This document shows, in pieces, positions 194 to 64,000 of a stretch of 64,000 nt of DNA. The position numbers and the translations under genes were made by a program. The notes under the pieces are model-generated. The model ran no database searches, was not told the origin of the DNA, and saw only the letters and a list, made by a program, of their open reading frames with translations. Origin of the DNA: an uncultured Gemmatimonadaceae bacterium (GTDB taxonomy: Bacteria > Gemmatimonadota > Gemmatimonadetes > Gemmatimonadales > Gemmatimonadaceae); NCBI GenBank assembly GCA_963781585.1, contig CAWAGQ010000013.1, positions 64,001-128,000 on the forward strand. Reading direction: 5' to 3'. Numbering within the stretch: the first letter of the stretch is position 1; the number at the start of each line of letters is the position of its first letter.

Positions 194-1051
194 ATGGACT
201 CGGTCGTTCGCTTCTATCGCTCGGGCGGGGCGCTCGCGTGGGCGTTGACGGCGATCGCCGTTCTGGGGTGCGCCGGCACCCTGTGGATGACGACCACCAC
301 CGCAAACGTCCGCTTTGCGCGCGACGTTACGCGGATGGTCTTCAACGACAACCTCGAGCTGCTCGCTGACGTGCGGCGTCGGGTGGGCACCGCCACCGAC
401 TCGCTCGATGATCTGATCGCGTCTCCGGGTGACACCGCCGTCGAGCGAGGCTCGATCGTGGTCAGCATCGCCGACCATCGCCTCTGGTACCGGGTGGGCG
501 ATCAGCTCGTGTTCGAAACCCGGGTCGCCACCGGCAGCGGAAAGGTGCTGGCACAGGGCAGCACGAGCCACTGGAAGTTCGAGACGCCGCGCGGGCGCCT
601 GGTGGTGCAGAACAAGGAGGCCGATCCCACCTGGGTGCCGCCCGACTGGCACTACGTCGAGGTGGCGAGGAAACAGCACCTTCGCCTAACGAAATTGATC
701 CGCGGCAAGTCCATCGACGTGGGCGACGGCAGCGTCATCACCGTGTCGGGCAACAACGTGGTCCGGCGTTTCCCCGACGGGCACGAAGAGCCGTACGAGG
801 TGAGTGAGGGGAAGGAGATCACGGTGAAGGGGATGCTCATCGTCCCGCCGTTCGGCACCAATCAGCGCCGGTATGAAGGGGTGGTGGGCACCGAGCGCCT
901 GAACCTCGGGGATGGATACGGACTGCATGGCACCGATGTGCCGTCGTCGATCGGACAATCGGTGAGCCACGGCTGCGTGCGATTGCGCAACGAGGACATC
1001 GAAACGCTGTTCCGCATCGTTCCCATTGGTACTCCGGTGTACATCTACTGA
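194..1051 (+). CDS. L,D-transpeptidase (YkuD family)
   Basis: N-terminal hydrophobic anchor; TPRG, PTWVPP, LHGT...SHGCVRL catalytic motif; ends GTPVYIY. Confidence 0.92.
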   Translation: MDSVVRFYRSGGALAWALTAIAVLGCAGTLWMTTTTANVRFARDVTRMVFNDNLELLADVRRRVGTATDSLDDLIASPGDTAVERGSIVVSIADHRLWYRVGDQLVFETRVATGSGKVLAQGSTSHWKFETPRGRLVVQNKEADPTWVPPDWHYVEVARKQHLRLTKLIRGKSIDVGDGSVITVSGNNVVRRFPDGHEEPYEVSEGKEITVKGMLIVPPFGTNQRRYEGVVGTERLNLGDGYGLHGTDVPSSIGQSVSHGCVRLRNEDIETLFRIVPIGTPVYIY

Positions 1052-1227
1052 CGTCGATGGCCCCGGGGCCGAGGGGTGGACCGGAGCGCGTCGAAGTGGC
1101 ATCTTTCTCTCCCCGTGCGTGCTCGGGCTCACGTTGCGAGTGCGTGCTCCCTCTCAAAACCCGCGATGGCGTGACCTCCACGGCCCCACACCGGTCGTGG
1201 CTGGGACATTCGGTATCAGAGGGGATA

Positions 1228-2169
1228 ATGAGACCGAGCAGCAGCCGAAGGACCACTATCGCGTTTGGTGTCGCCGCCGCGTTCGTGTGCGCGACGGCGT
1301 TCATGCGTGCGCCGGACGCCGGCGCGAACGTGTCCGTGCGTCCGTCGCCGGAATCGACCACCACGATGCCGTTCGGCGCGGACACGCTCGCGGGGCGCAG
1401 CGGCAAGCTCCTCATGCGGCTGATCGATCGGGAAGGGGATGGCGGACTGGCCATCCTGCGGCGCCTGTTCGGCGACACCGCGACCACCCGACCCGGCATT
1501 TACGTCGCCTTCGACAGTGCGACGCGACGGCCGTTCAGTTTTGTCACGCTCGTCCCGTTCGCCGAGAAGGTCAAGGGAACCATCGGGGCATACCGGATGG
1601 GGTTCTGGCCGGGCGAACGCCGCGCGACGCGCTCCGATGCGTACCAGAATCCGGAGGGCTTCGTCCAGGTGACGCCCGAGAACGAAGACACGCCGGTGTC
1701 GGAACACTTCCGGTTGCGCGACTTCCTCACCCACGATCAGGCGGCGGTGTGGCCGAAGTACGTCGTGCTGAGCGAGACGCTCGTCGACAAGCTCGAGCTC
1801 GCCATGGCTGAGCTCCAGCGGCGGGGGATCCGCGCCGAGCACTTGGCCGTCCTGTCGGGCTTCCGTTCGCCGCAGTACAATGCCCGCGGGGTGAAGAGGG
1901 GTGGTCGCGCCGCTGACAGCCGGCACCAGTACGGCGATGCGGCCGATGTGTTCGTGGACAGCAACGGTGACGGGCGCATGGACGATCTCAACCACGATGG
2001 CCGCGTGAACAGCCGGGACGCGCGGGTCCTGGAGCAGGTGTTCGAAGCCGTGGAACGGGAGTACCCCGATCTCGCGGGCGGTCTGGCGGTGTACGCCGCC
2101 ACCAGGGCGCACGGGCCGTTCGTACACGTCGATACCCGCGGCGTCCCTGCCCGCTGGGGTCTCCGCTAG
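1228..2169 (+). CDS. Secreted M15-family Zn peptidase (YcbK/MepK-like) with DxNxDG Ca-binding-type insert
   Basis: ATG 1228 after GAGGGG; signal peptide; SGFRS, SRHQYGDAADV, HVD motifs; DSNGDGRMDDLNHDGRVN insert. Confidence 0.82.
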   Translation: MRPSSSRRTTIAFGVAAAFVCATAFMRAPDAGANVSVRPSPESTTTMPFGADTLAGRSGKLLMRLIDREGDGGLAILRRLFGDTATTRPGIYVAFDSATRRPFSFVTLVPFAEKVKGTIGAYRMGFWPGERRATRSDAYQNPEGFVQVTPENEDTPVSEHFRLRDFLTHDQAAVWPKYVVLSETLVDKLELAMAELQRRGIRAEHLAVLSGFRSPQYNARGVKRGGRAADSRHQYGDAADVFVDSNGDGRMDDLNHDGRVNSRDARVLEQVFEAVEREYPDLAGGLAVYAATRAHGPFVHVDTRGVPARWGLR

Positions 2170-3263
2170 TGCCCTTCCAGGCTCCCGGGCCTTCAGGCTC
2201 CGGGCAGGACGCCGGCGGAGCCGGTTCGGACCGCGGCACCGGCGCGCCTGACGCGCCACAGCCCGTTAGGCAGGATGGATCCCGCGTCGGACGCACGGTG
2301 CGGCACGTCCGGCTCGCCCTCGCCTGCTCCCTCGCCGTCGGATACATCGCATTCCTGCGCCCCGCCGAAGGCCTCGAGAGCACCGCCGCGCGCCTGCGCG
2401 CGGGTCCGCTGGCTCGCCCCGCAGCCGAAGCCTTCGGCCGCAGCGGCCACGTGCGGATGCGATTCGCGTTGCCCGGGACGCTGCTGGACTACCCTCTCGA
2501 GGTGGCCACCCGGGTTGATTCCGTCCGGTACGACTGGATCCCCCTCAACGGCGTCAGTGCGCTCGAGCAACCGCGCGCTCTCGCCAACGGCCTCGTGGCC
2601 CCGGACCAGCCTGGTTTCTACCACCTCGAGCTCCGCACCAACGGTATCCACCGCATGGTGGATGGGGTGTCGCTGTCCGTGCTGGTTCCGTTCGCGGAAA
2701 AGAACGGCGCGTCGCTCAACGGATACCGGATCGGCTACTACCGCGGTGAACGGTCGACTCGCCCGACCGCTGACATGCCGGCGGGCTTCGTCCAGATCGA
2801 CACGTGCGACCTGGACCTCCAGGTCTCTGATCACTTGCGTCTCGCCGATTTCGTCAGCCGCGACGCCCAGTCCACCTGGCCCCGCTACGCTGCGGTCGAT
2901 CCGCGCATTCTCGACAAGGTCGAGCTCGTGCTCGATGAAATCGAGAGCTGGTACGGTGGGGCACGTCGGGCGAGCGTGGCGTTCGACGTGCACTCGGGGT
3001 TCCGCACCCCGCTGCACAACCGGCAGGTGGCGCGCGCCGCGCGCGACAGCCGGCACCAGTTCGGCGACGCGCTCGACCTCGCGGTGGACGCCAACCGCGA
3101 CGGACGGGTGAGCGCAGCCGACACGAAACTGGTCGCCCTGGCGGTGGAAATCGTCGAGCGTGCGCATCCCGATCTGGTGGGCGGCATGGGCATCTACACG
3201 CACAGCGGTCCGGCATACGTGCATATCGACACCCGCGGCCAGCGCGTTCGCTGGCGGGGTTGA
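2169..3263 (+). CDS. Second M15-family peptidase paralogue
   Basis: HSGFRTP, SRHQFGDALD, DANRDGRVS, HIDTRG; start uncertain (GTG 2169 or later). Confidence 0.8.
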   Translation: MPFQAPGPSGSGQDAGGAGSDRGTGAPDAPQPVRQDGSRVGRTVRHVRLALACSLAVGYIAFLRPAEGLESTAARLRAGPLARPAAEAFGRSGHVRMRFALPGTLLDYPLEVATRVDSVRYDWIPLNGVSALEQPRALANGLVAPDQPGFYHLELRTNGIHRMVDGVSLSVLVPFAEKNGASLNGYRIGYYRGERSTRPTADMPAGFVQIDTCDLDLQVSDHLRLADFVSRDAQSTWPRYAAVDPRILDKVELVLDEIESWYGGARRASVAFDVHSGFRTPLHNRQVARAARDSRHQFGDALDLAVDANRDGRVSAADTKLVALAVEIVERAHPDLVGGMGIYTHSGPAYVHIDTRGQRVRWRG

Positions 3264-3722: not shown

Positions 3723-3743
3723 GGAGTCGCTCCCACGTCTTGA

Positions 3744-9364: not shown

Positions 9365-10111
9365 TTGCCCGTCATCACTCTCCTCACCGATTTCGGCACC
9401 GCCGATGGATACGTGGCGCAGATGAAGGGCGTCCTCGTGACCGGTGCGCCGGGAGCGGTAGTGGTAGACCTGTCCCATGAGATTCCGCCACAGGACGTGG
9501 AACTCGCCCGACTCGCCGTCGCCCGCTATTGGCGCTGGTTTCCGCCGGGCACTGTCCATCTGGTCGTTGTTGACCCGGGGGTAGGAAGCGCTCGCGCCGC
9601 CGTGGCCGCGGCGAGCGACGGCCGGTATCTGGTGGGCCCGGACAACGGCGTGCTTTCGCCGGCGCTGCTGGTGCCGGGCGCGCGCGCGGTCGCCCTCGCG
9701 ACTCCCGCCGGGGCGTCGCCCACCTTTCACGGTCGCGATGTCTTTGCACCGGCTGCCGCGGCCCTTGCGCGAGGGATCGACCTCGAGGCGTTAGGCGCGC
9801 CGTTCGCGGAGCCGTGCATCCGCCGCACACCCGAGCCCATCCGCGAACCCGACGGCGGGCTCCGGGGAGAGGTCATCGCCCTCGATCGCTTCGGCAACGC
9901 GGTCACCAACCTGGCGGGCGTACGCGGGGGTATCGTGTCCGCGGGTTCGCGCCGCATCCCCGTGCGGCTCACCTACGTCGAGGTGCCGGTGGGTGAACTG
10001 CTGGCGCTGGTCGGCTCGTCGGGGCTGCTGGAGATCGCCCGGCGCAACGGCAGCGCCGCCGCCCTGGGCGTCCAGCGCGGCACAGTGGTGCGCTGGCATC
10101 CCGACGGCTAG
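9365..10111 (+). CDS. SAM hydroxide adenosyltransferase / chlorinase-fluorinase (DUF62) family
   Basis: ITLLTDFG, VVVDPGVGS, GPDNG, TFHGRDVFAP, DRFGN; TTG start inferred. Confidence 0.92.
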   Translation: MPVITLLTDFGTADGYVAQMKGVLVTGAPGAVVVDLSHEIPPQDVELARLAVARYWRWFPPGTVHLVVVDPGVGSARAAVAAASDGRYLVGPDNGVLSPALLVPGARAVALATPAGASPTFHGRDVFAPAAAALARGIDLEALGAPFAEPCIRRTPEPIREPDGGLRGEVIALDRFGNAVTNLAGVRGGIVSAGSRRIPVRLTYVEVPVGELLALVGSSGLLEIARRNGSAAALGVQRGTVVRWHPDG

Positions 10112-10147: not shown

Positions 10148-11272
10148 CTACGCGCGCTGGCCGCGCGTCGCGGCGGGCGTAGGTCGTCGCGCGGCCACCA
10201 CTCCCGTCACCGGCGTCGGCGTCAGCCAGACAGCCATCTCGTCGCTCACGGGTCGAGGGCGCGCTGCATCACGACGGGTACCTGCGCGCGAGAGAATCGC
10301 CGCGCCCAGTCCCGCGGTCGCCGCAACATAGGTGATTGCGAGCGCCAGAACCCGTCCGATGCCACTCAGCAGCGGTGACCATTGCAGCAGTGCGGCCGCC
10401 ACCCACATGCCGAGGTAGAGCAGGATGCCCAGCACCAGCCCCCTGAGCGCGCTGCCGCCCGCCGACAAGCGCCTGGACCGTCCCGGCCCGATGCTGCCAC
10501 CAGTCAACCGGGCCATGGCGAGGAACCCCAGCGTGACCAGTCCCGCCACCGCCAGCAGGTAGGCCACGACGGCGAACGGGATCAGCAGAATACCGACCAC
10601 CGTGACAGTGAGCGCGATCAGCAGCAGTGCCAGTACCGGGCCGATCCCGAGCTCTCCCGCCACCCCCACCAGAAAGGAACGCCAGAAGCTCTGTTCCAGG
10701 ACGTCCGTCACGCCCGCGAGATAATCGCCGGCAAAGGCGTGGACGCCGATGCCGATCAGCAGCACGATCACCAGCCAACCTAACGAGAGATTGAGCGCGC
10801 CCTGGGTCGAGAGCCGCGCGGCGCGGCGCTCGGGCGTCAGCCCCAGCCGCGCTCCCAGGGTGGCCGAGATCGACCGCTGGGCGCCTGCCACCGTACCGGA
10901 CGGGGCGCGAACCGCACCGAACGCCGCGATGGCGTCACCCGTCACGCGTCCACCGTCCTCCACGATCAGGTTCCCGGCGATGACGACTGCCGTGCCGACG
11001 ACCGTGCCCCGCACCCGCAGATCGCCCAGCGCCACCACCACCGGACCCTTTACGGAATCGCCGGCCGGGATGACCCGGCCACCGAACCCGATGGTGTCCG
11101 ACCCCACCTTCCCGCTGTCGGGCGATTGCATCGATATCCCCGACGAGTCCGGCGCGTGACCGGCGGCCCCATCCTGCCCGGCCGTCGTGGCGCCTTGTGC
11201 ACTCCCCTCGACCGAGAGGATGCTCAGGGCGACCATCGACGCGACGGTAACCACATGAACCGTCGCGCGCAT
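10148..11272 (-). CDS. Membrane protein with signal peptide, bactofilin-like beta-repeat region and multi-pass TM C-terminus
   Basis: GDLRVRGTVVGTAVVIAGNLIVEDGGRVTGD repeats, then several TM helices; ATG at 11272. Confidence 0.7.
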   Translation of the reverse strand: MRATVHVVTVASMVALSILSVEGSAQGATTAGQDGAAGHAPDSSGISMQSPDSGKVGSDTIGFGGRVIPAGDSVKGPVVVALGDLRVRGTVVGTAVVIAGNLIVEDGGRVTGDAIAAFGAVRAPSGTVAGAQRSISATLGARLGLTPERRAARLSTQGALNLSLGWLVIVLLIGIGVHAFAGDYLAGVTDVLEQSFWRSFLVGVAGELGIGPVLALLLIALTVTVVGILLIPFAVVAYLLAVAGLVTLGFLAMARLTGGSIGPGRSRRLSAGGSALRGLVLGILLYLGMWVAAALLQWSPLLSGIGRVLALAITYVAATAGLGAAILSRAGTRRDAARPRPVSDEMAVWLTPTPVTGVVAARRPTPAATRGQRA

Positions 11273-13568: not shown

Positions 13569-15046
13569 GCATCGACTCGATCCAGGACTTCATCGCACTC
13601 CTCGAGCGTGAGGGAGAGCTGCGTCGTGTGAGCGTTTCCGTCTCGGCGCGCCTGGAACTGGCCGAGATCGCCGATCGTGTGATGAAGCAGCCCGGCGGCG
13701 GCCGTGCGCTGCTGTTCGAGCACGTGCTGCTGAACGACGGCACGCGCTCACGGTATCCGGTGGCGATCAATCTCTTCGGGTCCAGCCGCCGGATGGCGAT
13801 GGCCCTCGGGGTGGCCGATCTCGACGAGGTTGGAGCGCGCATCACCCGCCTGCTCGACCTGAAAGTGCCGCAGGGAATTCTGGGCAAGCTGGCACTGCTT
13901 CCGCGCCTGCTCGAAGTCGCGAAGTTCCCCCCGCGCCGGCGCAGCGGGACACCTGCCTGTCAGGAAGTCGTGTGGCGCGGTAGCGACGTGGATCTCACGC
14001 GCCTCCCGATCATCACCTGCTGGCCGGGCGACGGCGGCCCGTACATCACGCTGCCGATGGTCATCTCGGTCGACCCGAAGCGGGGCATTCGCAACGTCGG
14101 GATGTATCGGGTGCAGGTCCTGGAGCGCGACTCGCTGGCCATGCACTGGCAGCGGCACAAGGTCGGCGCCGCGCACTGGCGCGAGATGGCGGCGCGGGGG
14201 GAGAAGATGCCGGTATGCATCGCGGTCGGCGCCGACCCGGCCTCGGTCTACGCCGCCTCCGCGCCACTCCCGCCTAACGTCGACGAATTCCTGTTTGCCG
14301 GCTTCCTGCGGCAGGCGCCGGTCCCGCTCGCGCGCGCCGTCACCTGCGAGCTGGATGTGCCGGCCGACGCCGAGTTTGTGATCGAGGGCGAAATTGATCC
14401 CGCCGAACCGCTGGTCACCGAAGGGCCGTTCGGCGACCATACTGGCTTCTATTCGGAGGCCGATCTGTACCCACGCGTCCAGGTGAAGGCCGTCACCATG
14501 CGGCGCGACCCGGTCTACGCCACCACCATCGTGGGGCGTCCGCCCATGGAGGACTTCTATCTCGGGCACGCCACCGAACGGATCTTCCTTCCGCTGCTCC
14601 GGCTCACCGTGCCCGAGATCGTCGACTACCACATGCCCGCCGAAGGGATCTTCCACAACCTCGTCTTCGTCTCGATCGACAAGCAGTATCCGGGACATGC
14701 CTACAAGGTGATGAACGCGCTCTGGGGGGCCGGCCTGATGTCCCTCGCCAAGCTGTTGGTGGTCCTGGACAAGGACGTCAACGTTCGCGATCCCCACGAA
14801 GCGTGGTGGATCGCGCTCAATCACATCGATCCCGAGCGGGATGCGCGTTTCACCATGGGACCCATCGACGTCCTCGATCACTCCAGTCGGGCCTTCACCT
14901 ACGGATCGAAGATGGGATTGGACGCGACCCGGAAGTGGCCTGAGGAAGGGTTCACCCGGGCCTGGCCCGATCGCATCGTCATGGACGCCGCCACCCGGGC
15001 GCGCGTCGACGCACGCTGGGGGGAGCTTGGCCTCGCCGACCGCTGA
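13565..15046 (+). CDS. ubiD: UbiD-family decarboxylase (menaquinone, futalosine-pathway type)
   Basis: RNVGMYR, EGPFGDHTGFY, GRPPMED, DVLDH, SKMGLDATRK. Confidence 0.93.
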   Translation: MSIDSIQDFIALLEREGELRRVSVSVSARLELAEIADRVMKQPGGGRALLFEHVLLNDGTRSRYPVAINLFGSSRRMAMALGVADLDEVGARITRLLDLKVPQGILGKLALLPRLLEVAKFPPRRRSGTPACQEVVWRGSDVDLTRLPIITCWPGDGGPYITLPMVISVDPKRGIRNVGMYRVQVLERDSLAMHWQRHKVGAAHWREMAARGEKMPVCIAVGADPASVYAASAPLPPNVDEFLFAGFLRQAPVPLARAVTCELDVPADAEFVIEGEIDPAEPLVTEGPFGDHTGFYSEADLYPRVQVKAVTMRRDPVYATTIVGRPPMEDFYLGHATERIFLPLLRLTVPEIVDYHMPAEGIFHNLVFVSIDKQYPGHAYKVMNALWGAGLMSLAKLLVVLDKDVNVRDPHEAWWIALNHIDPERDARFTMGPIDVLDHSSRAFTYGSKMGLDATRKWPEEGFTRAWPDRIVMDAATRARVDARWGELGLADR

Positions 15047-15998
15047 CCCCCGCTCCCGCGAAGGACAGACGTTCGACGGCGAGTCACGCCTCGTCCGCTA
15101 CGTCAATTTCGTCAAGCTCCCCCACACCGTGTTCGCGCTCCCGTTCGCGCTCGTGGGCGCAACCCTCGCCAGCTACCGCGCGCCGGTATCGTTAGGCATG
15201 GTGGCCTGGATAGTTCTCGCCTTTACCAGCGCCCGGTTCGCTGCCATGGGATTCAACCGGGTGGTGGATCGCGAGATCGATCGGCGCAATCCGCGAACCG
15301 CCGGTCGTGAACTCCCGGCTGGCACCATGGGCGTGCGCGAAGCGTCACTGGCGGTGCTGGCGGCGTCCGCCTGCTTCATCTTCGCCGCCTTTCGCCTCAA
15401 CCCGCTCTGCGGCTGGCTCGCACCGGTCGCTCTGGCATGGGTCCTGAGCTACAGCTACAGCAAGCGTTTCACCCGCTGGTCGCACCTGGTCCTTGGATTC
15501 AGCCTGGCCATCGCGCCGGTGGGCGGCTACCTGGCGGTGGCCGGGCGCTGGGGTTCGCCGTGGTGGATGCTGCTCGCGCTCGCGACTGGGGTGGCGACCT
15601 GGGTGGCGGGCTTCGACATTCTCTATGCCCTGCAGGACCGCACGTTCGATCTGGCCCAGGGTCTCCACTCCATCCCCGTCGCATTTGGCGAGGTCGCGGC
15701 CTTCCGCATCAGCCGCCTCCTGCACGTCGTGGCCATTCTCTCCCTGGCCGCCGTCGGATGGGCAACCGGCGCGGGGATCCTCTACGCCGCAGGCGTTGTG
15801 GTCGCCGGTGGCCTGCTACTGTACGAACATTCTCTGGTCTCGCCGCGCAACACAGCACGCCTCAACGCCGCATTCTTCACGATGAACGGCATCATTTCCA
15901 TTGCGTTTTTCACCTTCGTCTTCGCCGAACGCCTCCTCCACAGGTGGAACCTCGCGGCAGCCGGCATCGAGCATCTGCGCTCCGCGGTGCTGCCGTGA
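15027..15998 (+). CDS. ubiA: UbiA-family polyprenyltransferase (MqnP-like)
   Basis: VKLPHTVFALPF, NRVVDREID..NPRTAGRELP, YSYSKRF, GFDILYALQD; TTG start inferred. Confidence 0.9.
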   Translation: MASPTADPRSREGQTFDGESRLVRYVNFVKLPHTVFALPFALVGATLASYRAPVSLGMVAWIVLAFTSARFAAMGFNRVVDREIDRRNPRTAGRELPAGTMGVREASLAVLAASACFIFAAFRLNPLCGWLAPVALAWVLSYSYSKRFTRWSHLVLGFSLAIAPVGGYLAVAGRWGSPWWMLLALATGVATWVAGFDILYALQDRTFDLAQGLHSIPVAFGEVAAFRISRLLHVVAILSLAAVGWATGAGILYAAGVVVAGGLLLYEHSLVSPRNTARLNAAFFTMNGIISIAFFTFVFAERLLHRWNLAAAGIEHLRSAVLP

Positions 15999-21303: not shown

Positions 21304-21521
21304 GGTGAGAGAGGGTAAGGGGTGAGGGCGCCTGGCTGGCTCGTTAGGCGCACGCGTTCCGGAGATCGGTCGCGTTCCGCGGCCCCGCCTGCGGAGCCCT
21401 GACGCCGTCGCGTGACCGCCGACTTGCCGGTCCCACGCCCATCCTACGTCCGACAGCCGGAAAGGTGTCGCCCGGGCAATCCGCCGGCCCCGGACGCGCC
21501 CGCGACCGACTCCTCAGCGGC

Positions 21522-25530: not shown

Positions 25531-27357
<1,827 letters not shown>

Positions 27358-27376: not shown

Positions 27377-27844
27377 ATGACGGCGGTATCGGAGGTCCAC
27401 ATTCGCGCCGCGACGACCGCCGACCTGCCGGTGGCGCGCGCGCTTCTCGCGTCGGCCGAGCTGCCGCTGGACGGCCTCGAAGAATCTTTTGGCGAGGGAT
27501 ACGTCCTGGTGGAATCCGACGGAGAGCTGGTCGGCATCGAGGGCGTCGAAGTGCATGGCCGGGACGGACTCCTGCGGTCGGCGGCGGTCGCTCCCGGCTG
27601 GCGCGGGCGCGGCCTCGGCGACCGCATGACCCGCGACCGGATCGCCTGGTCGCGCCGGCGCGGTCTGCGGGCGCTGTACCTCCTGACCACGACGGCGGGG
27701 GACTATTTCCCGCGTTTCGGCTTCCTGCCAGCCGATCGGACGGCAGCGCCGGATGCGATCCGGACATCGCGGGAGTTCTCCCGGGCATGCCCCGACACGG
27801 CGTTGCTGATGCGTATGGCGTTAGGCAGCGACTCCGGAGCGTGA
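27377..27844 (+). CDS. GNAT acetyltransferase (ArsN2-like)
   Basis: LLRSAAV..WRGRGLG, LYLLTTTA..YF, EF..CP. Confidence 0.8.
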   Translation: MTAVSEVHIRAATTADLPVARALLASAELPLDGLEESFGEGYVLVESDGELVGIEGVEVHGRDGLLRSAAVAPGWRGRGLGDRMTRDRIAWSRRRGLRALYLLTTTAGDYFPRFGFLPADRTAAPDAIRTSREFSRACPDTALLMRMALGSDSGA

Positions 27845-27928: not shown

Positions 27929-28381
27929 ATGCGCGTTCTGCTGCAGCGCGTCTCGCGCGCCGAAGTTCGCGTTAGGCAGCCTGACGGCACGGCGGGAACC
28001 GCCGGCCGGATCGGCCGTGGGTACCTTCTCCTGGTCGGGTTTACGGACGCTGACGACGAGCCCCGCCTGGCGTGGATGGCCGACAAGGTGATCGGCCTGC
28101 GCCTGTTCGCCGACGCCGATCAGAAGATGAATCTGGCGCTTGGCGACGTGGGGGGATCGCTGCTGGTCGTGTCGCAGTTCACCCTCTACGGCGACGTGCA
28201 GAAGGGCCGCAGACCAAGCTTCCTCGATGCGGCCCGGCCGGATGTCGCGGTTCCGCTGTACGACCGTTTCGTGGCGCTCCTCCGCGAGCGCGGTGCAACC
28301 GTGGAAACCGGCGTGTTCGGCGCCATGATGGACGTGGAGCTGGTGAATGACGGCCCGGTGACGCTCTGGCTCGAGCGATGA
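27929..28381 (+). CDS. dtd: D-aminoacyl-tRNA deacylase
   Basis: MRVLLQRV, SQFTL, GRRPSF, NDGPVT. Confidence 0.97.
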   Translation: MRVLLQRVSRAEVRVRQPDGTAGTAGRIGRGYLLLVGFTDADDEPRLAWMADKVIGLRLFADADQKMNLALGDVGGSLLVVSQFTLYGDVQKGRRPSFLDAARPDVAVPLYDRFVALLRERGATVETGVFGAMMDVELVNDGPVTLWLER

Positions 28382-34732: not shown

Positions 34733-36838
34733 ATGGATCGACTCCTCAGGGCAAGAGCCCGATCGAGCCGGGCTGCGACGGTGACCATCGTGGCGACGCT
34801 GATCCTGCCCGCGCTCGGATCGCCGGAAGCGGCGAACGCCCAGTCCTGGAACGACGCGCGCACCCGCGCGCTCGTGACCCTCGCCACCGAGCGACGCGCG
34901 CTGCAACTTGCCGACACCGGGCTCGCCGCCTACGCCGCCACGGCGCACGGCTACCTGACGTTCCTGGCGCAGCTTGGCGAAGGCTTTCCCGATCCGCCCA
35001 AGGTGGTGAAGGCCGACGAGATCGCGCTGGAAGTCTATTGGCGCGCGCCGAACTACAGCAAGCAGGTGATTGTGGGGCGCCGGGACACCCTGGTGCTCCC
35101 CACGGATATCCAGTACCACCGCGATCACCTCGGAATCGTCCAGAACAACTTTCCGGATTTCATCCGGTTGGGAGAAGGGGACGAAGTCCGCGACGTGCCC
35201 CATCCGCTGTCCGCGACGGGCGGAACGGTCTACGATTTCGCCATCAGTGATTCACTCCGGATCGGCATTCCCGGGCGCACCATCGAGGTCTACGAGGTGA
35301 AGTTTCGTCCTCGTGACGACCGTATGTCGGCGGCGGTGGGCGCGGTGTATCTGGCGCGGGAAGACGCCCAGGTCGTTCGCATGGCGTTCTCGTTCACCCG
35401 TGCGGCACTGATCGATCACGAGCTGGAGGACGTATCGATCGTCCTGGAGAACGCGCTTATCGAAGGGCGCTTCTGGCTGCCCCGTCGCCAGGAGATCGAG
35501 ATCCGCCGCACTGGCACCTGGCTCGATTTTCCGGCGCGCGGCATCATCCGCGGCAGGTGGGAGATCTGCTGCTACCGGGTCAATCAGGCGCAGCCCGCGG
35601 CGTTCTTCGCCGGCCCTGAGATCGTGGTCGCCCCGCCGGCGGTCGTTGAGGCGCACCGATGGGAGGGCGCCATCCTCGACTCGCTGCCGACCGACGTTGG
35701 GGTCGCGAGCGAACAGGAGGTCCGGCGCGTCCAGGCCGAGGCGCGCGCGCTGGTGAGCTCGGCTGCGCTGGCGCGCAGCCGGCGGACATCGGTCAGCGCC
35801 CCGCGGCTGTCCGACATCGGCCATGTGGCCCGTGCTGAAGGACTGTCGTTAGGCTTCGGAGTCCGGCGGCGCCTCGGCGCCGGCCTCGATGCCGCCGTCC
35901 TGGCGCGGTTTGGCGTCGGCGATCACGAGCCGAAAGGCAGTCTCGAGGCGGGCTGGCGCAACGGCGCCGGCGATGCCGTTCGCCTGCGCGTGTTTCGCGA
36001 ATACCGGGACGCCGGCGACGAGGCGGAGACGTCGGGGATTCGGAACAGCCTCGCCGCGCAGGAGTTCGGAAGCGACTACTCCGATCCCTTCGACGCGCGC
36101 GGCGCCGAGCTGGTGCTGGAGCGACGGGGACGGACGAACGGGCGCTGGCGAGCGACGCTGGGTTACGAGTGGCACGACTCGGTACGAGTCATGGCGCATC
36201 CCACATTCGGCGCATTCCAACCGGTTCTCCCGGTTGTGAACGCCAGCGGCCCACGGTTGGCCCTGGCGTACGAGAACACCGCGATCGCATGGCCGGCCGG
36301 GCTCTCGGCGCGGGCACGGGTGGACCTCCGCTCGGGGCTCACAAGGTCCCGCGGCTATGAATCGTCCGTCTACTCCCGCGCCTTCGCCGACGTCGAGATC
36401 GAGCGCAAGTTCGGGGAACGACGGCTCGTGTTCCGGGCCCTCGGCGGTGCGGCCGGGAGCGATCGATCGCTTCCGGTGGAGGAGAATCTGTTCGCGGGCG
36501 GGCCGCTGACCGCTCCGGGGTACGAGTTTCATCAGTTCGGATCTTCGCGCCTCGTCGCCTTTCACGCCGAGTGGCAGGTCCCTGTGCCGTTTCCAACCAT
36601 CCCGCTCGGTCGGTGGGGCCGAATCCCGGGACGCGCTTCGATCGTCCCTCTTGGGAGCCTCCTCGGGACCGGACGCCCCGCCGCGCCGCGATTCCTCCGC
36701 GCCGGATGGTACCCGTCTCTCGGACTCGGGCTGCAAACCCTTTTTGACCTGCTGCGATTCGATGTCGCGCGAGGACTTCGCGATGGTCGATGGACGTTCA
36801 GTGTCGACGTGGCTCGGGACTTCTGGCGCATCATGTAG
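34733..36838 (+). CDS. Large exported/outer-membrane protein with probable C-terminal beta-barrel
   Basis: Signal peptide ending ANA-Q; amphipathic beta-strands at the C-terminus (LRFDVARG..WTFSVDV). Confidence 0.65.
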   Translation: MDRLLRARARSSRAATVTIVATLILPALGSPEAANAQSWNDARTRALVTLATERRALQLADTGLAAYAATAHGYLTFLAQLGEGFPDPPKVVKADEIALEVYWRAPNYSKQVIVGRRDTLVLPTDIQYHRDHLGIVQNNFPDFIRLGEGDEVRDVPHPLSATGGTVYDFAISDSLRIGIPGRTIEVYEVKFRPRDDRMSAAVGAVYLAREDAQVVRMAFSFTRAALIDHELEDVSIVLENALIEGRFWLPRRQEIEIRRTGTWLDFPARGIIRGRWEICCYRVNQAQPAAFFAGPEIVVAPPAVVEAHRWEGAILDSLPTDVGVASEQEVRRVQAEARALVSSAALARSRRTSVSAPRLSDIGHVARAEGLSLGFGVRRRLGAGLDAAVLARFGVGDHEPKGSLEAGWRNGAGDAVRLRVFREYRDAGDEAETSGIRNSLAAQEFGSDYSDPFDARGAELVLERRGRTNGRWRATLGYEWHDSVRVMAHPTFGAFQPVLPVVNASGPRLALAYENTAIAWPAGLSARARVDLRSGLTRSRGYESSVYSRAFADVEIERKFGERRLVFRALGGAAGSDRSLPVEENLFAGGPLTAPGYEFHQFGSSRLVAFHAEWQVPVPFPTIPLGRWGRIPGRASIVPLGSLLGTGRPAAPRFLRAGWYPSLGLGLQTLFDLLRFDVARGLRDGRWTFSVDVARDFWRIM

Positions 36839-51749: not shown

Positions 51750-52414
51750 GGGCGGCGAAGAACAAGGCGACACCTGGGTCTGACACAGCCCCGTGTTTTA
51801 CCCCCATGCGATTTTACCCGAACTTCCGCGAACAACCTTCACGGGAGTTGTTGTGATGGCCAAAAGAGATAAAGAGAAGACTGGGGATTGCGCCGGAGAA
51901 CGGACTACTAAGGGTCACGTCATGTACGGCGTCGGCAAGTCAACGACGAGACATACGTCATCACGCGCCTGACGCCTCGGTACGCCCAGTACATGCTCGC
52001 GCTCACGCTTGATCGTGGCGATGCCATTGTGCTATCGGCAGACAATGAGGGGAACCTGCTACTGAGGGCGGCTTCGACCAGTGGGCGTTCGACTCGTTTC
52101 AGGATGCCTATCTCTGTGCGCGGGACCTCCTCGGCGTCGGTAATCCGGGGTTTGCGGCAACGTCGTGGTCGAGGACTGGAAATCGGAAGGCGAAAACGAA
52201 CGCCGAACCGGCATGGCGGACCTTGATCGTTCGCAAGCTCGAAGCGTTGATCGCCGACACGGAACGGAAGATGAAGGAAGAACAGGCAGCACAAAGCAAT
52301 ATCGCCTAACGTCATACGTCTGCGTGGCTTTGGTGTCCCATTGGGGTAAGATTTGACTATCAGCTCGTTAGGCGCTCGACCCTCAGTCGGACACCAATCA
52401 GCCACGGAGGTCAG

Positions 52415-53860
52415 ATGATCAAGAAACTCTCACCACCACCCACGGAATCGCCGCTCGGTCGTCGAGAGCGCGGGCACGGAAAACTCGTGTGCTGGCCGTA
52501 CCGCACGCCGGCTGACCGTCTCGCGGGCGTCGCCGTTCCATATGGATACGACGCGCGAGGCCGGGCGCTGTGGAAGTTCGTCCTCCGGCTCGACGGTAAG
52601 GCGGTCGTGATCCCAGCCCGTGACTGGCCGCACGCCAACAACGAGTCGCTGAAACGCCTCGGCAAGTGGGATGAGATCGTTGCCGCGAAGGCGGCGAGGA
52701 AAGAAGCGCGCAAGGCTCGGATCACCGGCATAGCCGCCAGTGAGGGATGGAGGTACGCCGACCTGACGCGCGAATGGCTAGCCCACAAGCATCAGCAGGG
52801 CAGGGCACGGCCCTCGACGCTCGCGGGGTACGCGGACGACCTCAAGCGTCACTTCGACCCGTTCTTCAACGTGAAGCTCGACAACCCGGCGCTCGCCGAA
52901 ATCACGCCGGTTGCCATTTCGGCTTTTCGTGCCGCAGTCACGGGGGCAAAGGGTGACCGGCGTCGCGAGAAATGGAACAAGCTGTTTTCACGAGGTTGGG
53001 AGATCTTTGAGTTCGCCCGCGCTCTCGGGAAGATCGACCGCAACCCGTGGATCGCGCCCGTTCATCGCTATCCCGAGCGAACCCGCGACGCGGAGCAGCA
53101 GACCACTGTAATTCCGGCGACGCAGTTGGATCTGATCCTCGACGAGGCCGAGAAGCTCGATGACCCTCGCGTTTCCGTCGCGGTGCTACTCGCTGGGTAC
53201 GGCGGCCTTCGGCTCGACGAGATGACGCACGTTCGCGTCGGCGACCTCACCGTCACCGACACGCTGGTGGATCTGAAGGTAACCAGTGGCTTTCCCTGCT
53301 CGTGCTCATCGTGCGCGAAGGACGGCAACAAGCACCTGACGAAAAATGGGACGACGCGCTACGTGCCGTTCTTGCCTGAGCACGGACAACGGTTCGCTGC
53401 ACATGTCGAACGGCTTCGCACCGCCGGCGTGAGCGGTCCCGAGACGTGGCTGCTCGCCTGCCTCGAACGGCAGCGTCGGTCGAAAGCGAAGCCGGGCAAC
53501 ATGGTCAGGCGCGATACCATCGCGGGAGCGGTCGAGGGACTCGTCGCACGGACGCTCGGTCTCGCGCCGGTCGTCTCGAAAAAGAAGGCCAAAAACAAGT
53601 CCGGACAGATCCGCGATGTGACGCGGACGCGCTACAAGCTGCCGAAGGGAGAGCGCATCCACGTACTACGCCACGCGGCGCGGACTCGGCTCTCGCATCT
53701 CGGCCTGCCGAGCGAGACCATAGACCTCATCATGGGTCACCGGCTCACGGGGATGCGCGGCACGTACACGCATCAGGACCGCGCTGCCGCGTATCGGCTC
53801 CTCTGCGAGAAAGCAGGCAGGAATCTTCCGAGCCCGGTGCAACTCGTCCGGAGCGCCTAA
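52415..53860 (+). CDS. Tyrosine recombinase/integrase
   Basis: GGAGG RBS; GLRLDE (R), TKNG (K), HVLRH, MGH....GTY catalytic residues; adjacent to the att site. Confidence 0.93.
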   Translation: MIKKLSPPPTESPLGRRERGHGKLVCWPYRTPADRLAGVAVPYGYDARGRALWKFVLRLDGKAVVIPARDWPHANNESLKRLGKWDEIVAAKAARKEARKARITGIAASEGWRYADLTREWLAHKHQQGRARPSTLAGYADDLKRHFDPFFNVKLDNPALAEITPVAISAFRAAVTGAKGDRRREKWNKLFSRGWEIFEFARALGKIDRNPWIAPVHRYPERTRDAEQQTTVIPATQLDLILDEAEKLDDPRVSVAVLLAGYGGLRLDEMTHVRVGDLTVTDTLVDLKVTSGFPCSCSSCAKDGNKHLTKNGTTRYVPFLPEHGQRFAAHVERLRTAGVSGPETWLLACLERQRRSKAKPGNMVRRDTIAGAVEGLVARTLGLAPVVSKKKAKNKSGQIRDVTRTRYKLPKGERIHVLRHAARTRLSHLGLPSETIDLIMGHRLTGMRGTYTHQDRAAAYRLLCEKAGRNLPSPVQLVRSA

Positions 53861-53941
53861 CGCCGACTCACCATCAGGTGAATACAAGGGCGTATATTTG
53901 ACTACATCGTAAATGGCTGGGCGCATCGCCAGCCCACCACG

Positions 53942-56183: not shown

Positions 56184-56479
56184 CACGCGGTGTCGCGTGT
56201 AACCAATGATACAAATCCACGGACCGAAGGTTATAAAAAGTAGGAGTGTCTCAACCAGGAGGAAGAATCGCGTAACTCGTTGGCACCTAACGCCGCTTCC
56301 AGTCGCGACACTTCGCGTGAAAAGGGCAGTCGCGACACGCGTCATTCACGGTGGGGCGGAGCCTCCGCTTCCAGTCGCGACACGGCGGGTCGAATACAGG
56401 GAGGCCTGGCCTACAGCCTCGCTGAATGCCCCGGAAAATGCCTGCCGCGACCACGGCGGGACACCAGCGCGGGACACCA
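56165..56479. repeat. Putative replication origin: iterons flanking an AT-rich patch
   Basis: CAGTCGCGACAC x3 (two within CCGCTTCCAGTCGCGACAC at 56293 and 56365, one at 56327); inverted partial copies at 56165 and 56190; AT-rich 56200-56245; GCGGGACACCA x2 (56456, 56469). Confidence 0.75.
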
Positions 56480-56709
56480 CCGCCCGGCCGATTGTAACAA
56501 GCTCACATAAGTGCTGTCGTGGCAAAGCTTTATGCACAAAGACTATCATATCAGGTACGCTAGTTCGTCTTCGCGACAAGCCCCTAGAACACGCTCAGAC
56601 CGCCTCGCGTGCCGCCGACCTATTTCTCCCTGTCCTCACGCACGGATTGCCCTTACCGTGGCATCTGGTGCCACCACCAACCGGTTCGCTGGACCTAACG
56701 AGTTCCTCA

Positions 56710-57312: not shown

Positions 57313-57465
57313 CAGCGCTGTATCGGACTCGTTAGGGCCATCACGGTACCTTGAAAAACGTATCGAGGCCTCACGCCTCGACGCGCTACGGACGACGGTC
57401 GGCCAGCGGAACTGAAAATCTCCGCCGCTGGTCGGCCGAAGCCCCGGACCTCAAGGAATACCAAG

Positions 57466-59210: not shown

Positions 59211-59474
59211 GTGACCTTCCGCGCGGCAAAGCGCCACGCGTCCCGCGAGGGACTTCGAATCCCCCGGCCTCCGAAGACGCTCGACGACGCCGTTAGGCTC
59301 GCGTCGTGGGTGTCGATCCAGGTCGCGCGCGGGAATATCAGCCATCACGACGCCCGCGCCATCACGGACGCGCTCAAGGAATTTCGCGAGCTGCTCGGCG
59401 TTCGCGACGCGAGGGTCGAGGCCGAGTCCCTGCGTCGCCAGATCGCTGAGCTAAAGGCGCGAGCCGGTGAATAG
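59211..59474 (+). CDS. Small helical protein, candidate terminase small subunit
   Basis: 87 aa, helical with C-terminal coiled coil; overlaps the terL start; function inferred from position only. Confidence 0.5.
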   Translation: MTFRAAKRHASREGLRIPRPPKTLDDAVRLASWVSIQVARGNISHHDARAITDALKEFRELLGVRDARVEAESLRRQIAELKARAGE

Positions 59475-60993
59475 GCGAGAGCTAGAGCGACTTCGCCGCG
59501 AACTCGGCGAGCTGGAAGAGCGGCTCTACGGCACCGCGCCGTGGCCCGACCTCTCCCGGTACGCCGGGCGCGCCCGCGCCTTCGCGGAAGACGTTTGCCA
59601 CGCGGTGCTGCTCTCCTGGCAGGGCGAGGCGTTTGACGCGCTCGACGCGAACCGGCTCCTTGCCGTCGCGTCGTGCAACGGCGCGGGCAAGACCGCGTGG
59701 GCGCCGCTCGCGCTCCTGTACGTGGCGGCGGTGCTCGGTGCGAAGGCCGTCTATCTGACCGCCAACGAGCGGACGGCGCGCACGACGATGGTGCGCGAGC
59801 TAAAGCGGTGGGTCCGCGCCGCGAAGCTGCCGTGCTCGGTCTACAACCACGGCGTCGAAACGCCTAACGGCGGCGTGATCCTCGTCCTGTCGCCCGCCGA
59901 GATGGAAGCGGCCGCGGGCCAGCACGACCCCGAGATGGTGGTGATCGTGGACGAGGCCTCGGCGCTCGAAGACGACATCTTCGAGGCGCTGATGGGCAAC
60001 GCCGTGTCGGAGCGCAACCGGCTGGTTCTGCTAGGCAACCCGCTCCGCGCCTCCGGACCGTTCGCGACTGCGCTCCGCGCCGCACAGGGCTGGTGGAAGC
60101 GCTTCGTGACCGCCGCCGAGGTGATGGCCGACGCGAACTATGCGAACATCGCGGGCCTCATCAGCAAGCCGGGCGTGGACGCGCTCCGTCAAACGTTCGG
60201 TGAGGAGTCGATGGCGTTCGCGAGCCGCGTATACGCGCGGCTTCCGGTCGCCGACGCGGACGCGCTCTATCCGGAGGCGCTGTTAGAAGCGGCCGTCGAG
60301 CGCTGGCGAGCCGGCACGCTTCGGAGGAAGCACGCGAACGCGCGTCTCAAGGCGGGGCTCGACCTGGCCGCGTCCGAGGACGGCGACGCGTCGGCGCTGG
60401 CGGTGGCCTTCGGCGGCGCGCACGTCGAGGCCATCCACACCATGCGGAGCCGCGACACGATGAAGGTCGCGGGCTGGGCGGTCGCCACACTCGGCGCGTA
60501 CAACGCGCGGCGTCGCCCTAGCTTCGCGATGGCCGAAGCCGTCCGGGACCTCGGCCTAACGAGCCCCGGCGATCCCCTCATCCAGCTTCGCGACGTGAGC
60601 ATCTATGGCGACGAGATCGCGTGGGGAAAGGGCTGCATCGACCGGCTCAAGGAGGCGGGCTTTGCGGCTTACGGCATCAATGTTTCACGACGACCGGCCG
60701 AGGCCGACAAGGCGGCGATCTACGCGAACGAGCGGGCGCGCATCGCCTACGCGTTCCGCGAAAGGCTGGTGCAGGGGACCGTGGCGATCCCACCAGACGA
60801 CGAGCTGCTGGAAGAACTACGCGCCTATAAGGCCTTCGCGAACAGCGCCGGGAAGCAGCAGTGCGTCAGCAAGGGCGAGCTTCGGCAGGTGCTCGGCCGA
60901 AGCCCCGACAAGATGGACGCGGTGCTGCTGGCGACGTGCGCGGACGCGTCGCCGACGTTCGACGCCGACGAGAGTGGCTTGATCGCGTTCTAG
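59467..60993 (+). CDS. Terminase large subunit
   Basis: Walker A SCNGAGKT, Walker B VVIVDEA, LLGNP coupling motif, nuclease GLDLA..D, DEIAWG, SPDKMDA. Confidence 0.85.
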   Translation: MNRRELERLRRELGELEERLYGTAPWPDLSRYAGRARAFAEDVCHAVLLSWQGEAFDALDANRLLAVASCNGAGKTAWAPLALLYVAAVLGAKAVYLTANERTARTTMVRELKRWVRAAKLPCSVYNHGVETPNGGVILVLSPAEMEAAAGQHDPEMVVIVDEASALEDDIFEALMGNAVSERNRLVLLGNPLRASGPFATALRAAQGWWKRFVTAAEVMADANYANIAGLISKPGVDALRQTFGEESMAFASRVYARLPVADADALYPEALLEAAVERWRAGTLRRKHANARLKAGLDLAASEDGDASALAVAFGGAHVEAIHTMRSRDTMKVAGWAVATLGAYNARRRPSFAMAEAVRDLGLTSPGDPLIQLRDVSIYGDEIAWGKGCIDRLKEAGFAAYGINVSRRPAEADKAAIYANERARIAYAFRERLVQGTVAIPPDDELLEELRAYKAFANSAGKQQCVSKGELRQVLGRSPDKMDAVLLATCADASPTFDADESGLIAF

Positions 60994-61514: not shown

Positions 61515-61524
61515 GGCGATGCCA

Positions 61525-62493: not shown

Positions 62494-62569
62494 TCGCGAC
62501 GTGCGACCGACGCGTCGCCTACCGTCGACTGATCGAGCGGCCGATAAGCCTTCTGACTGGCCCGATAAG

Positions 62570-62734
62570 CTACGGGACTAACCTGCCAGAGAACGCGGCG
62601 CTGATTACCTGTGAGATTGCGGCGTTCACCGCCTCGCGAGTTCCGCTCTTGAGTGCGGCACGTATGCGCTGTCCAAGCGGAGTCTGATCCTTCAGCGCAT
62701 CCGGCACGGAATTGAGAACGGTTAACCCCTTTAG
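62570..62734 (-). pseudogene. 3' end of a gene interrupted by the IS5
   Basis: Open frame LKGLTVLNSVPDALKDQTPLGQRIRAALKSGTREAVNAAISQVISAAFSGRLVP* running from the IS boundary. Confidence 0.6.
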
Positions 62735-64000
62735 CAGGGTGCTGAAAAAGGGTGGAAAACTTGCTGTTGCAGAACGGGAGAGCGATGCCTAACGTGGCGC
62801 GACCCCAATGGAGAGTCCCCGGTATGCGCGGCGAGAGCCCCCAGCAGACGATTCTGTTCAGCTATCGCTCGGTCGAGGACCGGATCCCGGTCGACCACCC
62901 CTTGCGCGTGATCCGCCAGCTCGTGGAACCCGTGCTGCGCGAGCTGTCCCCCCAATTTGACGTGCTGTACGCCAAGATCGGGCGGCCGTCGATTCCGCCG
63001 GAGCACTTGCTGCGGGCGCTCCTCCTCCAGGTGCTGTACACGCTCCGGAGCGAACGGCGCCTCATGGAGGAACTCGACTACAATCTCCTCTATCGCTGGT
63101 TCGTGGGACTGAATCCCGACGAGCCCGTGTGGGTGCCGACCGTGTTCACGAAGAACCGGGAGCGGCTCCTGGAGGGGGACATCGCGCACGCGTTCTTCGC
63201 GGCGGTCCAGCGGCAGGCCGAGGTGCGGCAGTTGCTCTCGCACGAGCACTTCACGGTGGATGGCACGCTCCTCGAAGCTTGGGCGAGCCAGAAGAGCTTT
63301 CGCCCGATCACCGAGGGGGGCGACGGACCCCAGGGGCCCACCCCACCGGCGGAGGCGGATGCCGCGAGTCGGCCGAAGAATCCGACGGTGAATTTCCGGG
63401 GGGAGAAGCGGTCGAATGCGACGCATCGGTCGAGGACGGATCCCGACGCGCGGCTGGCCCGGAAGAGCCGAAACACCGCCGCGATTCTCGGCTACCTGGC
63501 GAGTGTGATCATCGATAATCGCCACGGCTTGGTGGTGGCGACCGATGTGCGCGCGCCGGGCGGGCATGCGGAGGAGGAGGCCGGGCTCGAGATGCTGACC
63601 ACGCTGGAAAGCCACCGGCCGCACCGGACCCTCGGGGCCGACAAGGGCTACGATACCGAATCGTTCGTCACCGGGGCGCGGGACGCGGGGGTGACGCCCC
63701 ATGTCAGTCAGAACATTCACCCCCGCCGGCTTCGCAGCGCCATTGACGCGCGGACGACCCGCCACTCGGGCTACGAGATCAGTCAGCGCAAACGGAAACT
63801 GGTGGAGCAAGGCTTTGGCTGGGACAAAACCGTGGGCTTGCTGCGCAAACTCCGGCATCGCGGTCGCGAGAAGGTCGGCTGGATCTTCACGTTCACCAAT
63901 GCCACCTACAATCTGGTGCGGATCCGCACCCTGATCCGGGCCGGCGTATGCCCCTAACGTCGACCAGCGCGCGGAATCGCCGCCGCGATCGCGCAAAGGG
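62735..64000 (+). mobile_element. IS5-family insertion sequence (right end beyond window)
   Basis: Left end CAGGGTGCTGAAAAA preceded by TTAG; intact transposase. Confidence 0.85.
62824..63957 (+). CDS. IS5-family DDE transposase
   Basis: DHPLR, GRPSIPPE, YNLLYRWFVGL, VDGT, TDPDARL, ADKGYD, RKLVEQGFGW.K. Confidence 0.95.
   Translation: MRGESPQQTILFSYRSVEDRIPVDHPLRVIRQLVEPVLRELSPQFDVLYAKIGRPSIPPEHLLRALLLQVLYTLRSERRLMEELDYNLLYRWFVGLNPDEPVWVPTVFTKNRERLLEGDIAHAFFAAVQRQAEVRQLLSHEHFTVDGTLLEAWASQKSFRPITEGGDGPQGPTPPAEADAASRPKNPTVNFRGEKRSNATHRSRTDPDARLARKSRNTAAILGYLASVIIDNRHGLVVATDVRAPGGHAEEEAGLEMLTTLESHRPHRTLGADKGYDTESFVTGARDAGVTPHVSQNIHPRRLRSAIDARTTRHSGYEISQRKRKLVEQGFGWDKTVGLLRKLRHRGREKVGWIFTFTNATYNLVRIRTLIRAGVCP

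Follow-up and report, generated by a model that had tools for sequence, protein, structure and literature searches.

A non-palindromic octamer kept at high abundance as a DNA-level signal in genomes of Gemmatimonadaceae

A 64,000-base stretch of DNA from an uncultured Gemmatimonadaceae bacterium (contig CAWAGQ010000013.1, positions 64,001 to 128,000; hereafter the window) contains one short word, the octamer CGTTAGGC (read on the opposite strand as GCCTAACG), far more often than its composition predicts, and raises the question of what keeps this word in the genome. A preliminary description of the window had counted 20 perfect copies and five more of the 7-mer core CGTTAGG, and had proposed a DNA-level signal of this lineage that matches no described motif. 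Exact counting returns the same numbers and coordinates: there are 20 perfect copies per 64,000 bases, 13 on the plus and 7 on the minus strand, starting at coordinates from 684 to 62787, at a density of one per 3.2 kb. The core occurs 25 times, and the last of the five copies beyond the exact octamers ends at 63959. We conclude that CGTTAGGC is a recognition word specific to this lineage, that it weakly favors a purine as the following base, and that it is read on DNA and not on RNA or protein. That the signal is real, resides at the DNA level, and is subject to a directional force is almost certain, and the word is kept by selection or molecular drive.

The excess of CGTTAGGC holds under all null models applied. 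The G+C content of the window is 66.4% (it had been estimated at about 68%), and base composition alone predicts approximately 2.4 copies by our own arithmetic, within the 2–3 expected earlier. Shuffles that preserve dinucleotides contain on average 1.05 copies (standard deviation 1.05, maximum 4), and none of 100 attains 20. Markov models of orders 1, 2, and 3 expect 1.11, 0.69, and 0.86 copies, respectively, and with each of them CGTTAGGC ranks first among all octamers of the window for over-representation. The order-4 model expects 6.07 copies (p 6e-6), which is an inflated expectation because pentamers from the motif itself enter the model. For a codon null, synonymous codons were shuffled 1000 times within each of 53 genes called by third-position GC and Pfam matches, which occupy 89.4% of the window. 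This procedure keeps every protein and the codon usage of each gene, the rare codons derived from the motif included. It yields 0.70 copies (standard deviation 0.81, maximum 4 in 1000), against 14 observed genic copies. The enrichment thus survives both dinucleotide- and codon-preserving nulls, and the overall excess is 18- to 29-fold over the three kinds of null.

The genic copies show that the signal resides in the DNA. Seven of them are in sense and seven in antisense orientation, and all four stop-free frames are used: xCG TTA GGC five times, xxC GTT AGG C twice, xGC CTA ACG twice, and xxG CCT AAC G five times. One frame per strand is closed by a stop codon (CGT TAG GC and GCC TAA CG). Because both gene strands and all four stop-free frames are used, CGTTAGGC is no peptide or RNA signal. 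The word is written in rare codons: TTA makes up 13 of the 1919 leucine codons, and five of these 13 are inside CGTTAGGC. Two of the four TAA stops in the gene list lie inside copies (those of the integrase gene and of the open reading frame (ORF) 35849-36892), and in a relative, L004, a copy supplies the TAG stop of dtd. Six of the 20 copies are located outside called genes, where 10.6% of the window lies (p 0.015). The gene and frame assignments made in the preliminary description for glmS, maf, ubiA, the DUF62 gene, dtd, ubiD, trpE, the terL-like gene, the L,D-transpeptidase gene, and the IS5-family insertion sequence (IS) were all reproduced, as were the intergenic copy at 21342 and the copies in the IS5 and in the island, an integrated element described below.

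The use of rare codons bears on a Chi-like role, in which CGTTAGGC would be read on single-stranded DNA by RecBCD or AddAB, causing a change from degradation to RecA loading, and its density would be selected for break repair. The word has the form expected for such a role, as it is a sharp non-palindromic octamer with no excess of one-mismatch copies at positions 1–7. Its density is near the 'every ~5 kb' of Escherichia coli Chi, and its presence in mobile DNA resembles that of Chi in some phages, according to the excerpts of the Chi literature that were available. The excess of CGTTAGGC reaches beyond codon usage, whereas for the Chi words of E. coli and Staphylococcus aureus it is argued, in the accessible part of a preprint, that common codons account for how often they occur and how they are oriented. 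Since CGTTAGGC consists of rare codons and survives the codon-preserving null, we rank a Chi-like role below an uptake tag, of which it is the chief competitor, and consider it unlikely. Relatives with GlmS identities of 77–83% that show no excess also speak against it.

The enrichment is not confined to the window. A glmS-based scan of species-representative genomes matched at least 604 stretches, provided a partial sample of relatives, and places the window in Gemmatimonadaceae. The best by GlmS identity among the matches listed are L004 (85%; 7 exact copies in 21,824 bases, 0.15 expected), L028 (83%, partial), L001 (82%; 2 exact copies in 6,675 bases, 0.07 expected), L002 (80%), L053 (79%), and L003 (77%), with no exact copies in L028, L002, L053, and L003. 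CGTTAGGC is the top octamer in L004 too, and the motif-bearing sample (window, L004, and L001) amounts to 92 kb. No copies occur in L005–L011 and L014. The window density predicts approximately 7 copies for L053, 4 for L002, 3 for L003, and 1.5 for L028; the zeros of L053 and L002 are therefore meaningful, those of L003 and L028 less so. Seventy-eight other loci (1,302,759 bases) hold 7 copies, against 11.7 expected. The 16 of these with at least 60% G+C (256,879 bases) hold none, against 1.66 expected, in line with the proposal that the signal belongs to this lineage. In the GlmS tree, the window pairs with L004 (support 0.98), and L001 is weakly attached (0.60) to the motif-less L028, L002, and L003. 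It is possible that the motif was gained once and later lost, or that its bearers form a single clade that is poorly resolved in the GlmS tree.

The word is sharply defined and makes up a large share of its own rare sub-words, which inflates the order-4 Markov expectation. GTTAGG occurs 26 times in the window and is preceded by C in 25 cases, and all 20 instances of GCCTAAC are followed by G. The tetramers TTAG and CTAA, which had been noted as otherwise scarce, total 53, of which 25 are inside the core. Window counts of one-mismatch variants at positions 1–7 show none in excess of expectation. Position 8 is more tolerant: 3 copies end in T (0.37 expected) and 2 in G (0.42 expected), so that CGTTAGG is followed by C in 20 copies, T in 3, G in 2, and A in none. 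Among 29 aligned copies from the three genomes, 25 have a purine as the ninth base, or 23 of 27 (p 3e-4) when the three homologous glmS copies are counted once. For the one-mismatch variant CGTCAGGC, the motif-bearing genomes (window, L004, and L001) together have 17 copies where 8.9 are expected, and seven relatives without the motif have 9 where 8.2 are expected; this variant may be a form of CGTTAGGC that is tolerated or in decay.

These properties leave a practically negligible probability that nothing special has to be explained, whether the copies were to stem from chance, from codon or dipeptide preferences, from decay of a dispersed repeat, or from faulty assembly; each was tested and rejected. 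All nulls are exceeded. No extended repeat surrounds the copies, so they are not pieces of a dispersed element. Their flanks have no similarity, 14 of the 20 lie inside genes, and those in conserved genes are in frame without indels. The same excess in three independent assemblies excludes an assembly artefact.

Two other words were considered and rejected as counterparts. The second-ranked octamer of the window, CACCGCCA/TGGCGGTG, has 23 sites (388 to 62358) against 5–6 expected. Most genes that bear it have TGGCGGTG on the coding strand, which suggests that codon or dipeptide usage produces the excess; a Chi-type enzyme might use a common word of this sort. The octamer CAGTTCGA has 11 copies in L053 (Gemmatimonas sp. 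DEX182b, 3651-18534) against 0.7–2.1 expected. Its orientation tracks the gene strand, it sits at conserved peptide positions, and three positions are common to L053 and the window or L004, so it is a coding word. Related 'dialects' of CGTTAGGC were also rejected, as in L002, L003, L028, L053, L011, L005, and L006 the top octamers are either palindromic or words of the coding sequence.

The literature searched, which did not cover subscription journals, yielded no account of CGTTAGGC or of any hyper-abundant word in Gemmatimonadota, which bears out the earlier remark that the motif is not a described one. As a plain string, CGTTAGGC appears, among the matches listed, in primers and unrelated constructs. 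The accessible portion of PMC3497702 does not mention Gemmatimonadota, and the three motifs reported for the Gemmatirosa methylome are all unlike CGTTAGGC.

The loci of the relatives are syntenic with the part of the window from 16 to 40 kb, which enables comparison of individual sites. At the glmS copy (26639), the window, L004, and L001 all have the codons ACG TTA GGC, and nearby synonymous positions differ. The same Thr-Leu-Gly is encoded by ACG CTC GGT in L053, and the middle residue is Tyr, Ile, or Met in GlmS of the other relatives. Identity at fourfold degenerate sites of glmS is 0.45–0.49 among the three motif-bearing genomes and 0.41–0.52 over all 15 pairs; by our own arithmetic, base composition alone gives approximately 0.39 for the window and L004. 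Synonymous sites in glmS are near saturation, and therefore a leucine codon with a frequency of 0.7% that is kept in three lineages is not neutral. Available portions of the literature on the cyanobacterial highly iterated palindrome (HIP1) use the same argument to infer selection, and CGTTAGGC might likewise be selected for a chromosome-level role, such as binding of a nucleoid- or domain-organizing protein, with no link to DNA transfer. The excess of CGTTAGGC falls within the 15- to 300-fold range given there for HIP1, and its copies occur within and between genes. Nevertheless, CGTTAGGC is no palindrome, no candidate protein is known, and exact conservation is limited to one in four alignable window sites, which makes a HIP1-like role rather improbable.

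Most sites turn over. Among window sites with alignable orthologues, one of four is shared exactly with L004 and L001, and at one more (maf) L001 has the 7-mer core; one of four alignable L004 sites and one of two alignable L001 sites are shared. New sites differ from their orthologues at two or more positions, mostly by GC-to-AT transitions such as CTS to TTA. At the dtd site, Arg CGG or CGA was changed to AGG and Glu GAG to Gln CAG, which gave the final C. The site in the Kdo-type kinase gene was gained by a change from L-P-D to M-P-N. Copies sit in frame within conserved genes without indels, and the alignments indicate that the non-shared copies arose independently, some of them via amino-acid changes. 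The directional force on CGTTAGGC works against GC-rich codon habits and sometimes overrides protein sequence.

The predominance of GC-to-AT changes would also result if CGTTAGGC had no function of its own and merely arose from a bias of mutation or repair with sequence specificity, such as very-short-patch-type correction or a deaminase, because GC-rich precursors would be turned by transitions into an AT-containing word, and the lineage-specific distribution is compatible with it. However, correction at one position draws on the pool of one-mismatch words, of which 0.2–0.5 are expected per variant, so 20 copies are unreachable. The likely precursors are not depleted in the motif clade (CGCTGGGC 11 against 11.9 expected, CGCTCGGC 23 against 24.9), and one- and two-mismatch neighbors show no general excess. 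The need for at least two changes per gain, some non-synonymous, and the conservation of the glmS copy at saturated synonymous distance further make such a bias highly improbable.

The orientation of the copies hints at polarity. Up to 36 kb, exact copies are oriented 11:2 (plus:minus), beyond 52 kb they are 2:5, and there are none between; the corresponding counts for the core are 11:3 and 3:8. The plus orientation in the first 36 kb holds whatever the strand of the gene, minus-strand genes included, which would favor a Chi-like word. In a change-point permutation test, however, p is 0.12 for the octamer and 0.10 for the core. By strand, the window has 13:7 copies (p 0.26) and the three genomes together 18:11. 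The stretch with 8:0 in the window has 4:3 interleaved copies in L004 and 1:1 in L001, which weakens the case for Chi-type polarity. The copy-free gap of 16,457 bases is marginal under uniform placement (p 0.054 for the octamer, 0.016 for the core).

A switch of orientation between 36 and 52 kb would also be expected if CGTTAGGC guided FtsK toward the terminus, as FtsK-orienting polar sequences (KOPS) and SpoIIIE recognition sequences (SRS) do. On the complete chromosome of L053, glmS is at 2.63–2.65 Mb of 4.92 Mb, which would be near the antipode of the origin if the record starts there. The change-point test is not significant, a dif-like pattern has 0 matches at up to 3 mismatches in the window, and neither total GC skew nor third-position GC (GC3) skew taken separately for each gene strand is informative, with differences of approximately 0.02. 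In addition, orientations are interleaved in L004, and the right-hand block consists of an integrated element and an IS with their own history. A KOPS-like guide is thus very unlikely.

The right-hand block adjoins a tRNA-Leu gene (Table 1), and its gene set suggests a phage satellite or prophage remnant. Matches in phage and plasmid collections are distant: 27% identity for the terL-like protein, 27–32% for the primase, and 55–57% for the IS5 transposase. The block carries 7 of the 20 exact copies in 11.7 kb (p 0.058) and four of the five core variants, so resident mobile DNA is at least as rich in CGTTAGGC as core genes. The sole close inverted pair of copies in the window, 52304/52366, has arms separated by 54 bases and is positioned just upstream of the integrase gene.

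Table 1. Copies of the octamer and its core variants in the window, and features of the integrated element. Frames are read on the coding strand.
Feature	Position	Strand	Context
Exact octamer	684..691	-	L,D-transpeptidase gene (+), CGC CTA ACG AAA
Exact octamer	2264..2271	+	Peptidase_M15_2 gene (+), CCC GTT AGG CAG
Exact octamer	9789..9796	+	DUF62/SAM hydroxide adenosyltransferase gene (+), GCG TTA GGC
Core variant, eighth base T	10778..10785	-	ORF 10148-11389 (-)
Exact octamer	14272..14279	-	ubiD (+), CCG CCT AAC GTC
Exact octamer	15190..15197	+	ubiA (+), TCG TTA GGC
Exact octamer	21342..21349	+	non-coding, spacer of M48 peptidase gene and Cys/Met PLP enzyme gene
Exact octamer	26639..26646	+	glmS (+), ACG TTA GGC; same site and letters in L004 and L001
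Exact octamer	27819..27826	+	GNAT acetyltransferase gene (+), GCG TTA GGC
Exact octamer	27970..27977	+	dtd (+), CGC GTT AGG CAG; Gln (CAG) here, Glu (GAG) in relatives
Exact octamer	28901..28908	+	maf (+), GCG TTA GGC; 7-mer core at same site in L001
Exact octamer	31298..31305	+	antisense in Kdo/WaaP-type kinase gene (-), ATG CCT AAC GAC; L-P-D-G/D in relatives
Exact octamer	34141..34148	+	antisense in trpE (-), ACG CCT AAC GCC
Exact octamer	35847..35854	+	overlaps TAA stop of predicted ORF 35849-36892 (-)
Exact octamer	52304..52311	-	interval of tRNA-Leu and integrase genes, end of uncertain open frame; inverted partner of 52366
Exact octamer	52366..52373	+	non-coding, 42 bases upstream of integrase start
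Exact octamer	53855..53862	-	overlaps TAA stop of integrase gene
Core variant, eighth base T	56285..56292	-	island ORF 56206-57312 (+)
Core variant, eighth base T	56693..56700	-	island ORF 56206-57312 (+)
Core variant, eighth base G	57330..57337	+	non-coding, in island
Exact octamer	59291..59298	+	non-coding, spacer of HTH_17 gene and terL-like gene
Exact octamer	59862..59869	-	terL-like gene (+), ACG CCT AAC GGC
Exact octamer	60554..60561	-	terL-like gene (+), GGC CTA ACG AGC
Exact octamer	62787..62794	-	IS5-family transposase gene (+), ATG CCT AAC GTG
Core variant, eighth base G	63952..63959	-	end of IS5 transposase gene
tRNA-Leu	51596-51681	-	adjoins integrated element (51596-63959)
Tyrosine integrase	52415-53860		integrated element
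Prim-Pol/AAA_25 primase-helicase	54285-56183		integrated element
HTH_17 excisionase-like gene	58802-59206		integrated element
terL-like gene	59467-60993		27% identity to phage terminases
DUF4238 gene	61525-62493		integrated element
IS5-family transposase	62752-63957		integrated element

The copy-free 16.4 kb (35855-52303) hold genes of a type II/IV secretion ATPase (T2SSE), a NUDIX protein, engB, lon, clpX, clpP, tig, and three carotenoid genes. The T2SSE ATPase (36952-39189) carries an N-terminal MshEN domain and a C-terminal fused response-regulator receiver domain, a fusion that is unusual for a PilB/MshE-like motor. A 1451-codon open frame without a Pfam match (32483-36838, plus strand) runs antisense to trpE (33188-35203) and its neighbors and is a spurious long ORF typical of GC-rich DNA. 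ORF 11271-13568 likewise overlaps an extracytoplasmic function (ECF) sigma factor gene on the opposite strand, upstream of ubiE.

What, then, keeps CGTTAGGC in place? By analogy with known systems, we infer that a molecular drive of the uptake-sequence type fits best. It does so because copies occur in both orientations, in all usable frames, and relatively more often outside genes, because positions turn over fast with few long-kept sites, and because the word has a graded 3' end, few one-mismatch copies, a restriction to related genera, and a presence in mobile elements. We tentatively propose that CGTTAGGC acts as an uptake-sequence-like tag of self-DNA or as a transfer tag, which we hold to be quite possible. 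Fragments that carry the word would be favored by a protein that binds this sequence specifically and belongs to a pathway of DNA transfer or recombination; an uptake receptor is a candidate for this reader and, less likely, a packaging protein. Alleles that gain CGTTAGGC by ordinary GC-to-AT mutation would be transmitted and recombined more often. The word would then build up where coding constraint is weakest, at residues free to vary, in seldom-used synonymous codons, in stop codons, and in spacers, in either orientation, resident mobile DNA included. The full scenario is more doubtful: a sub-clade of Gemmatimonadaceae may possess a new form of self-DNA recognition that biases horizontal transfer to CGTTAGGC fragments, by competent uptake or by packaging in a resident phage-like element, and thereby rewrites genes, stops, and mobile elements in opposition to codon usage.

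Several observations weigh against a tag for uptake or transfer. Classical uptake sequences are denser than one per 3.2 kb. The flanks of the 29 aligned copies carry no information besides the purine at +9, there are no terminator-like inverted pairs in the window, and the plus orientation before 36 kb hints at polarity of the Chi or KOPS type. The motif-bearing clade has been seen as 92 kb only, and the literature found documents neither natural competence nor uptake specificity in Gemmatimonadota. CGTTAGGC is also shorter than the 9–12-mers searched in the available part of a study on DNA uptake sequences (DUS).

Few hyper-abundant genomic words are understood, among them uptake sequences, Chi, and KOPS, and HIP1 has been unexplained for decades, as far as the accessible literature on it goes. 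CGTTAGGC is a new, sharply defined non-palindromic example from a barely studied soil and freshwater phylum, and demonstrates that strong GC-rich codon preference, and even the encoded amino acid, can yield to a force acting on DNA. Phylogenetic profiling that contrasts genomes showing the excess with those lacking it offers a handle on the reader protein, and CGTTAGGC is usable as a marker of native versus foreign DNA in metagenome bins of Gemmatimonadaceae. If CGTTAGGC is a tag for uptake or transfer, adding it to transforming DNA would be a route to genetic tools for bacteria that are hard to manipulate. It would also be the first known molecular drive of the uptake-sequence type outside Proteobacteria, in a phylum for which no characterized mechanism of gene exchange is known.

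Inverted pairs that act as terminators are frequent among DUS, and the uptake signal sequences (USS) of Pasteurellaceae have a structured flanking consensus. CGTTAGGC has no such consensus and forms no inverted-pair terminators; it differs from DUS and USS in sequence, phylum, length (8–9 instead of 9–12 bases), and its density of about one per 3.2 kb. DNA with such uptake words is preferentially taken up or preferentially transforms cells, by way of a specific receptor (ComP-type); for CGTTAGGC a receptor of this kind is hypothetical. In the accounts of DUS (Neisseriaceae) and USS available to us, the likeness is otherwise close: these words are short, non-palindromic, and hyper-abundant on both strands, lie inside genes in any usable frame and are relatively commoner outside, are confined to related genera, have few one-mismatch copies, and tolerate variation at one end. 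The consulted section of the DUS study describes exceptional over-representation, with one-mismatch copies adding only 21% in one genome.

KOPS and SRS, which have a very strong strand skew that reverses at dif, resemble CGTTAGGC as oriented words of octamer size, and over 36 kb of the window a single orientation predominates. They differ in that the skew here is not significant and the window has no dif site, and the excess of CGTTAGGC is much larger than that of KOPS. Repetitive extragenic palindromic (REP) and miniature inverted-repeat transposable element (MITE)-like dispersed repeats, which are mostly intergenic and similar to one another beyond the core, differ from CGTTAGGC, which has no flank conservation in 29 aligned copies and is genic in 14 of 20. 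Chi, as described in the available sources, shares with CGTTAGGC the form of a sharp non-palindromic octamer with one copy per few kb, also in mobile DNA. Chi words run in the direction of replication, and RecBCD or AddAB is attenuated on recognizing them. The abundance and orientation of E. coli Chi are attributed in those sources to frequent codons, whereas CGTTAGGC uses rare codons, is 20-fold above the codon-preserving null, and has strand counts of 13:7 with a change-point p of 0.10–0.12. HIP1 is described, in the parts of its literature that were accessible, as an octamer 15- to 300-fold over-represented in and between genes, conserved at orthologous sites, and of unexplained function. 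CGTTAGGC is likewise an octamer over-represented within and between genes, 18- to 29-fold and with one site conserved across three genomes, but it belongs to a different phylum and, as CGTTAGGC and GCCTAACG differ, it lacks the palindromic symmetry of HIP1.

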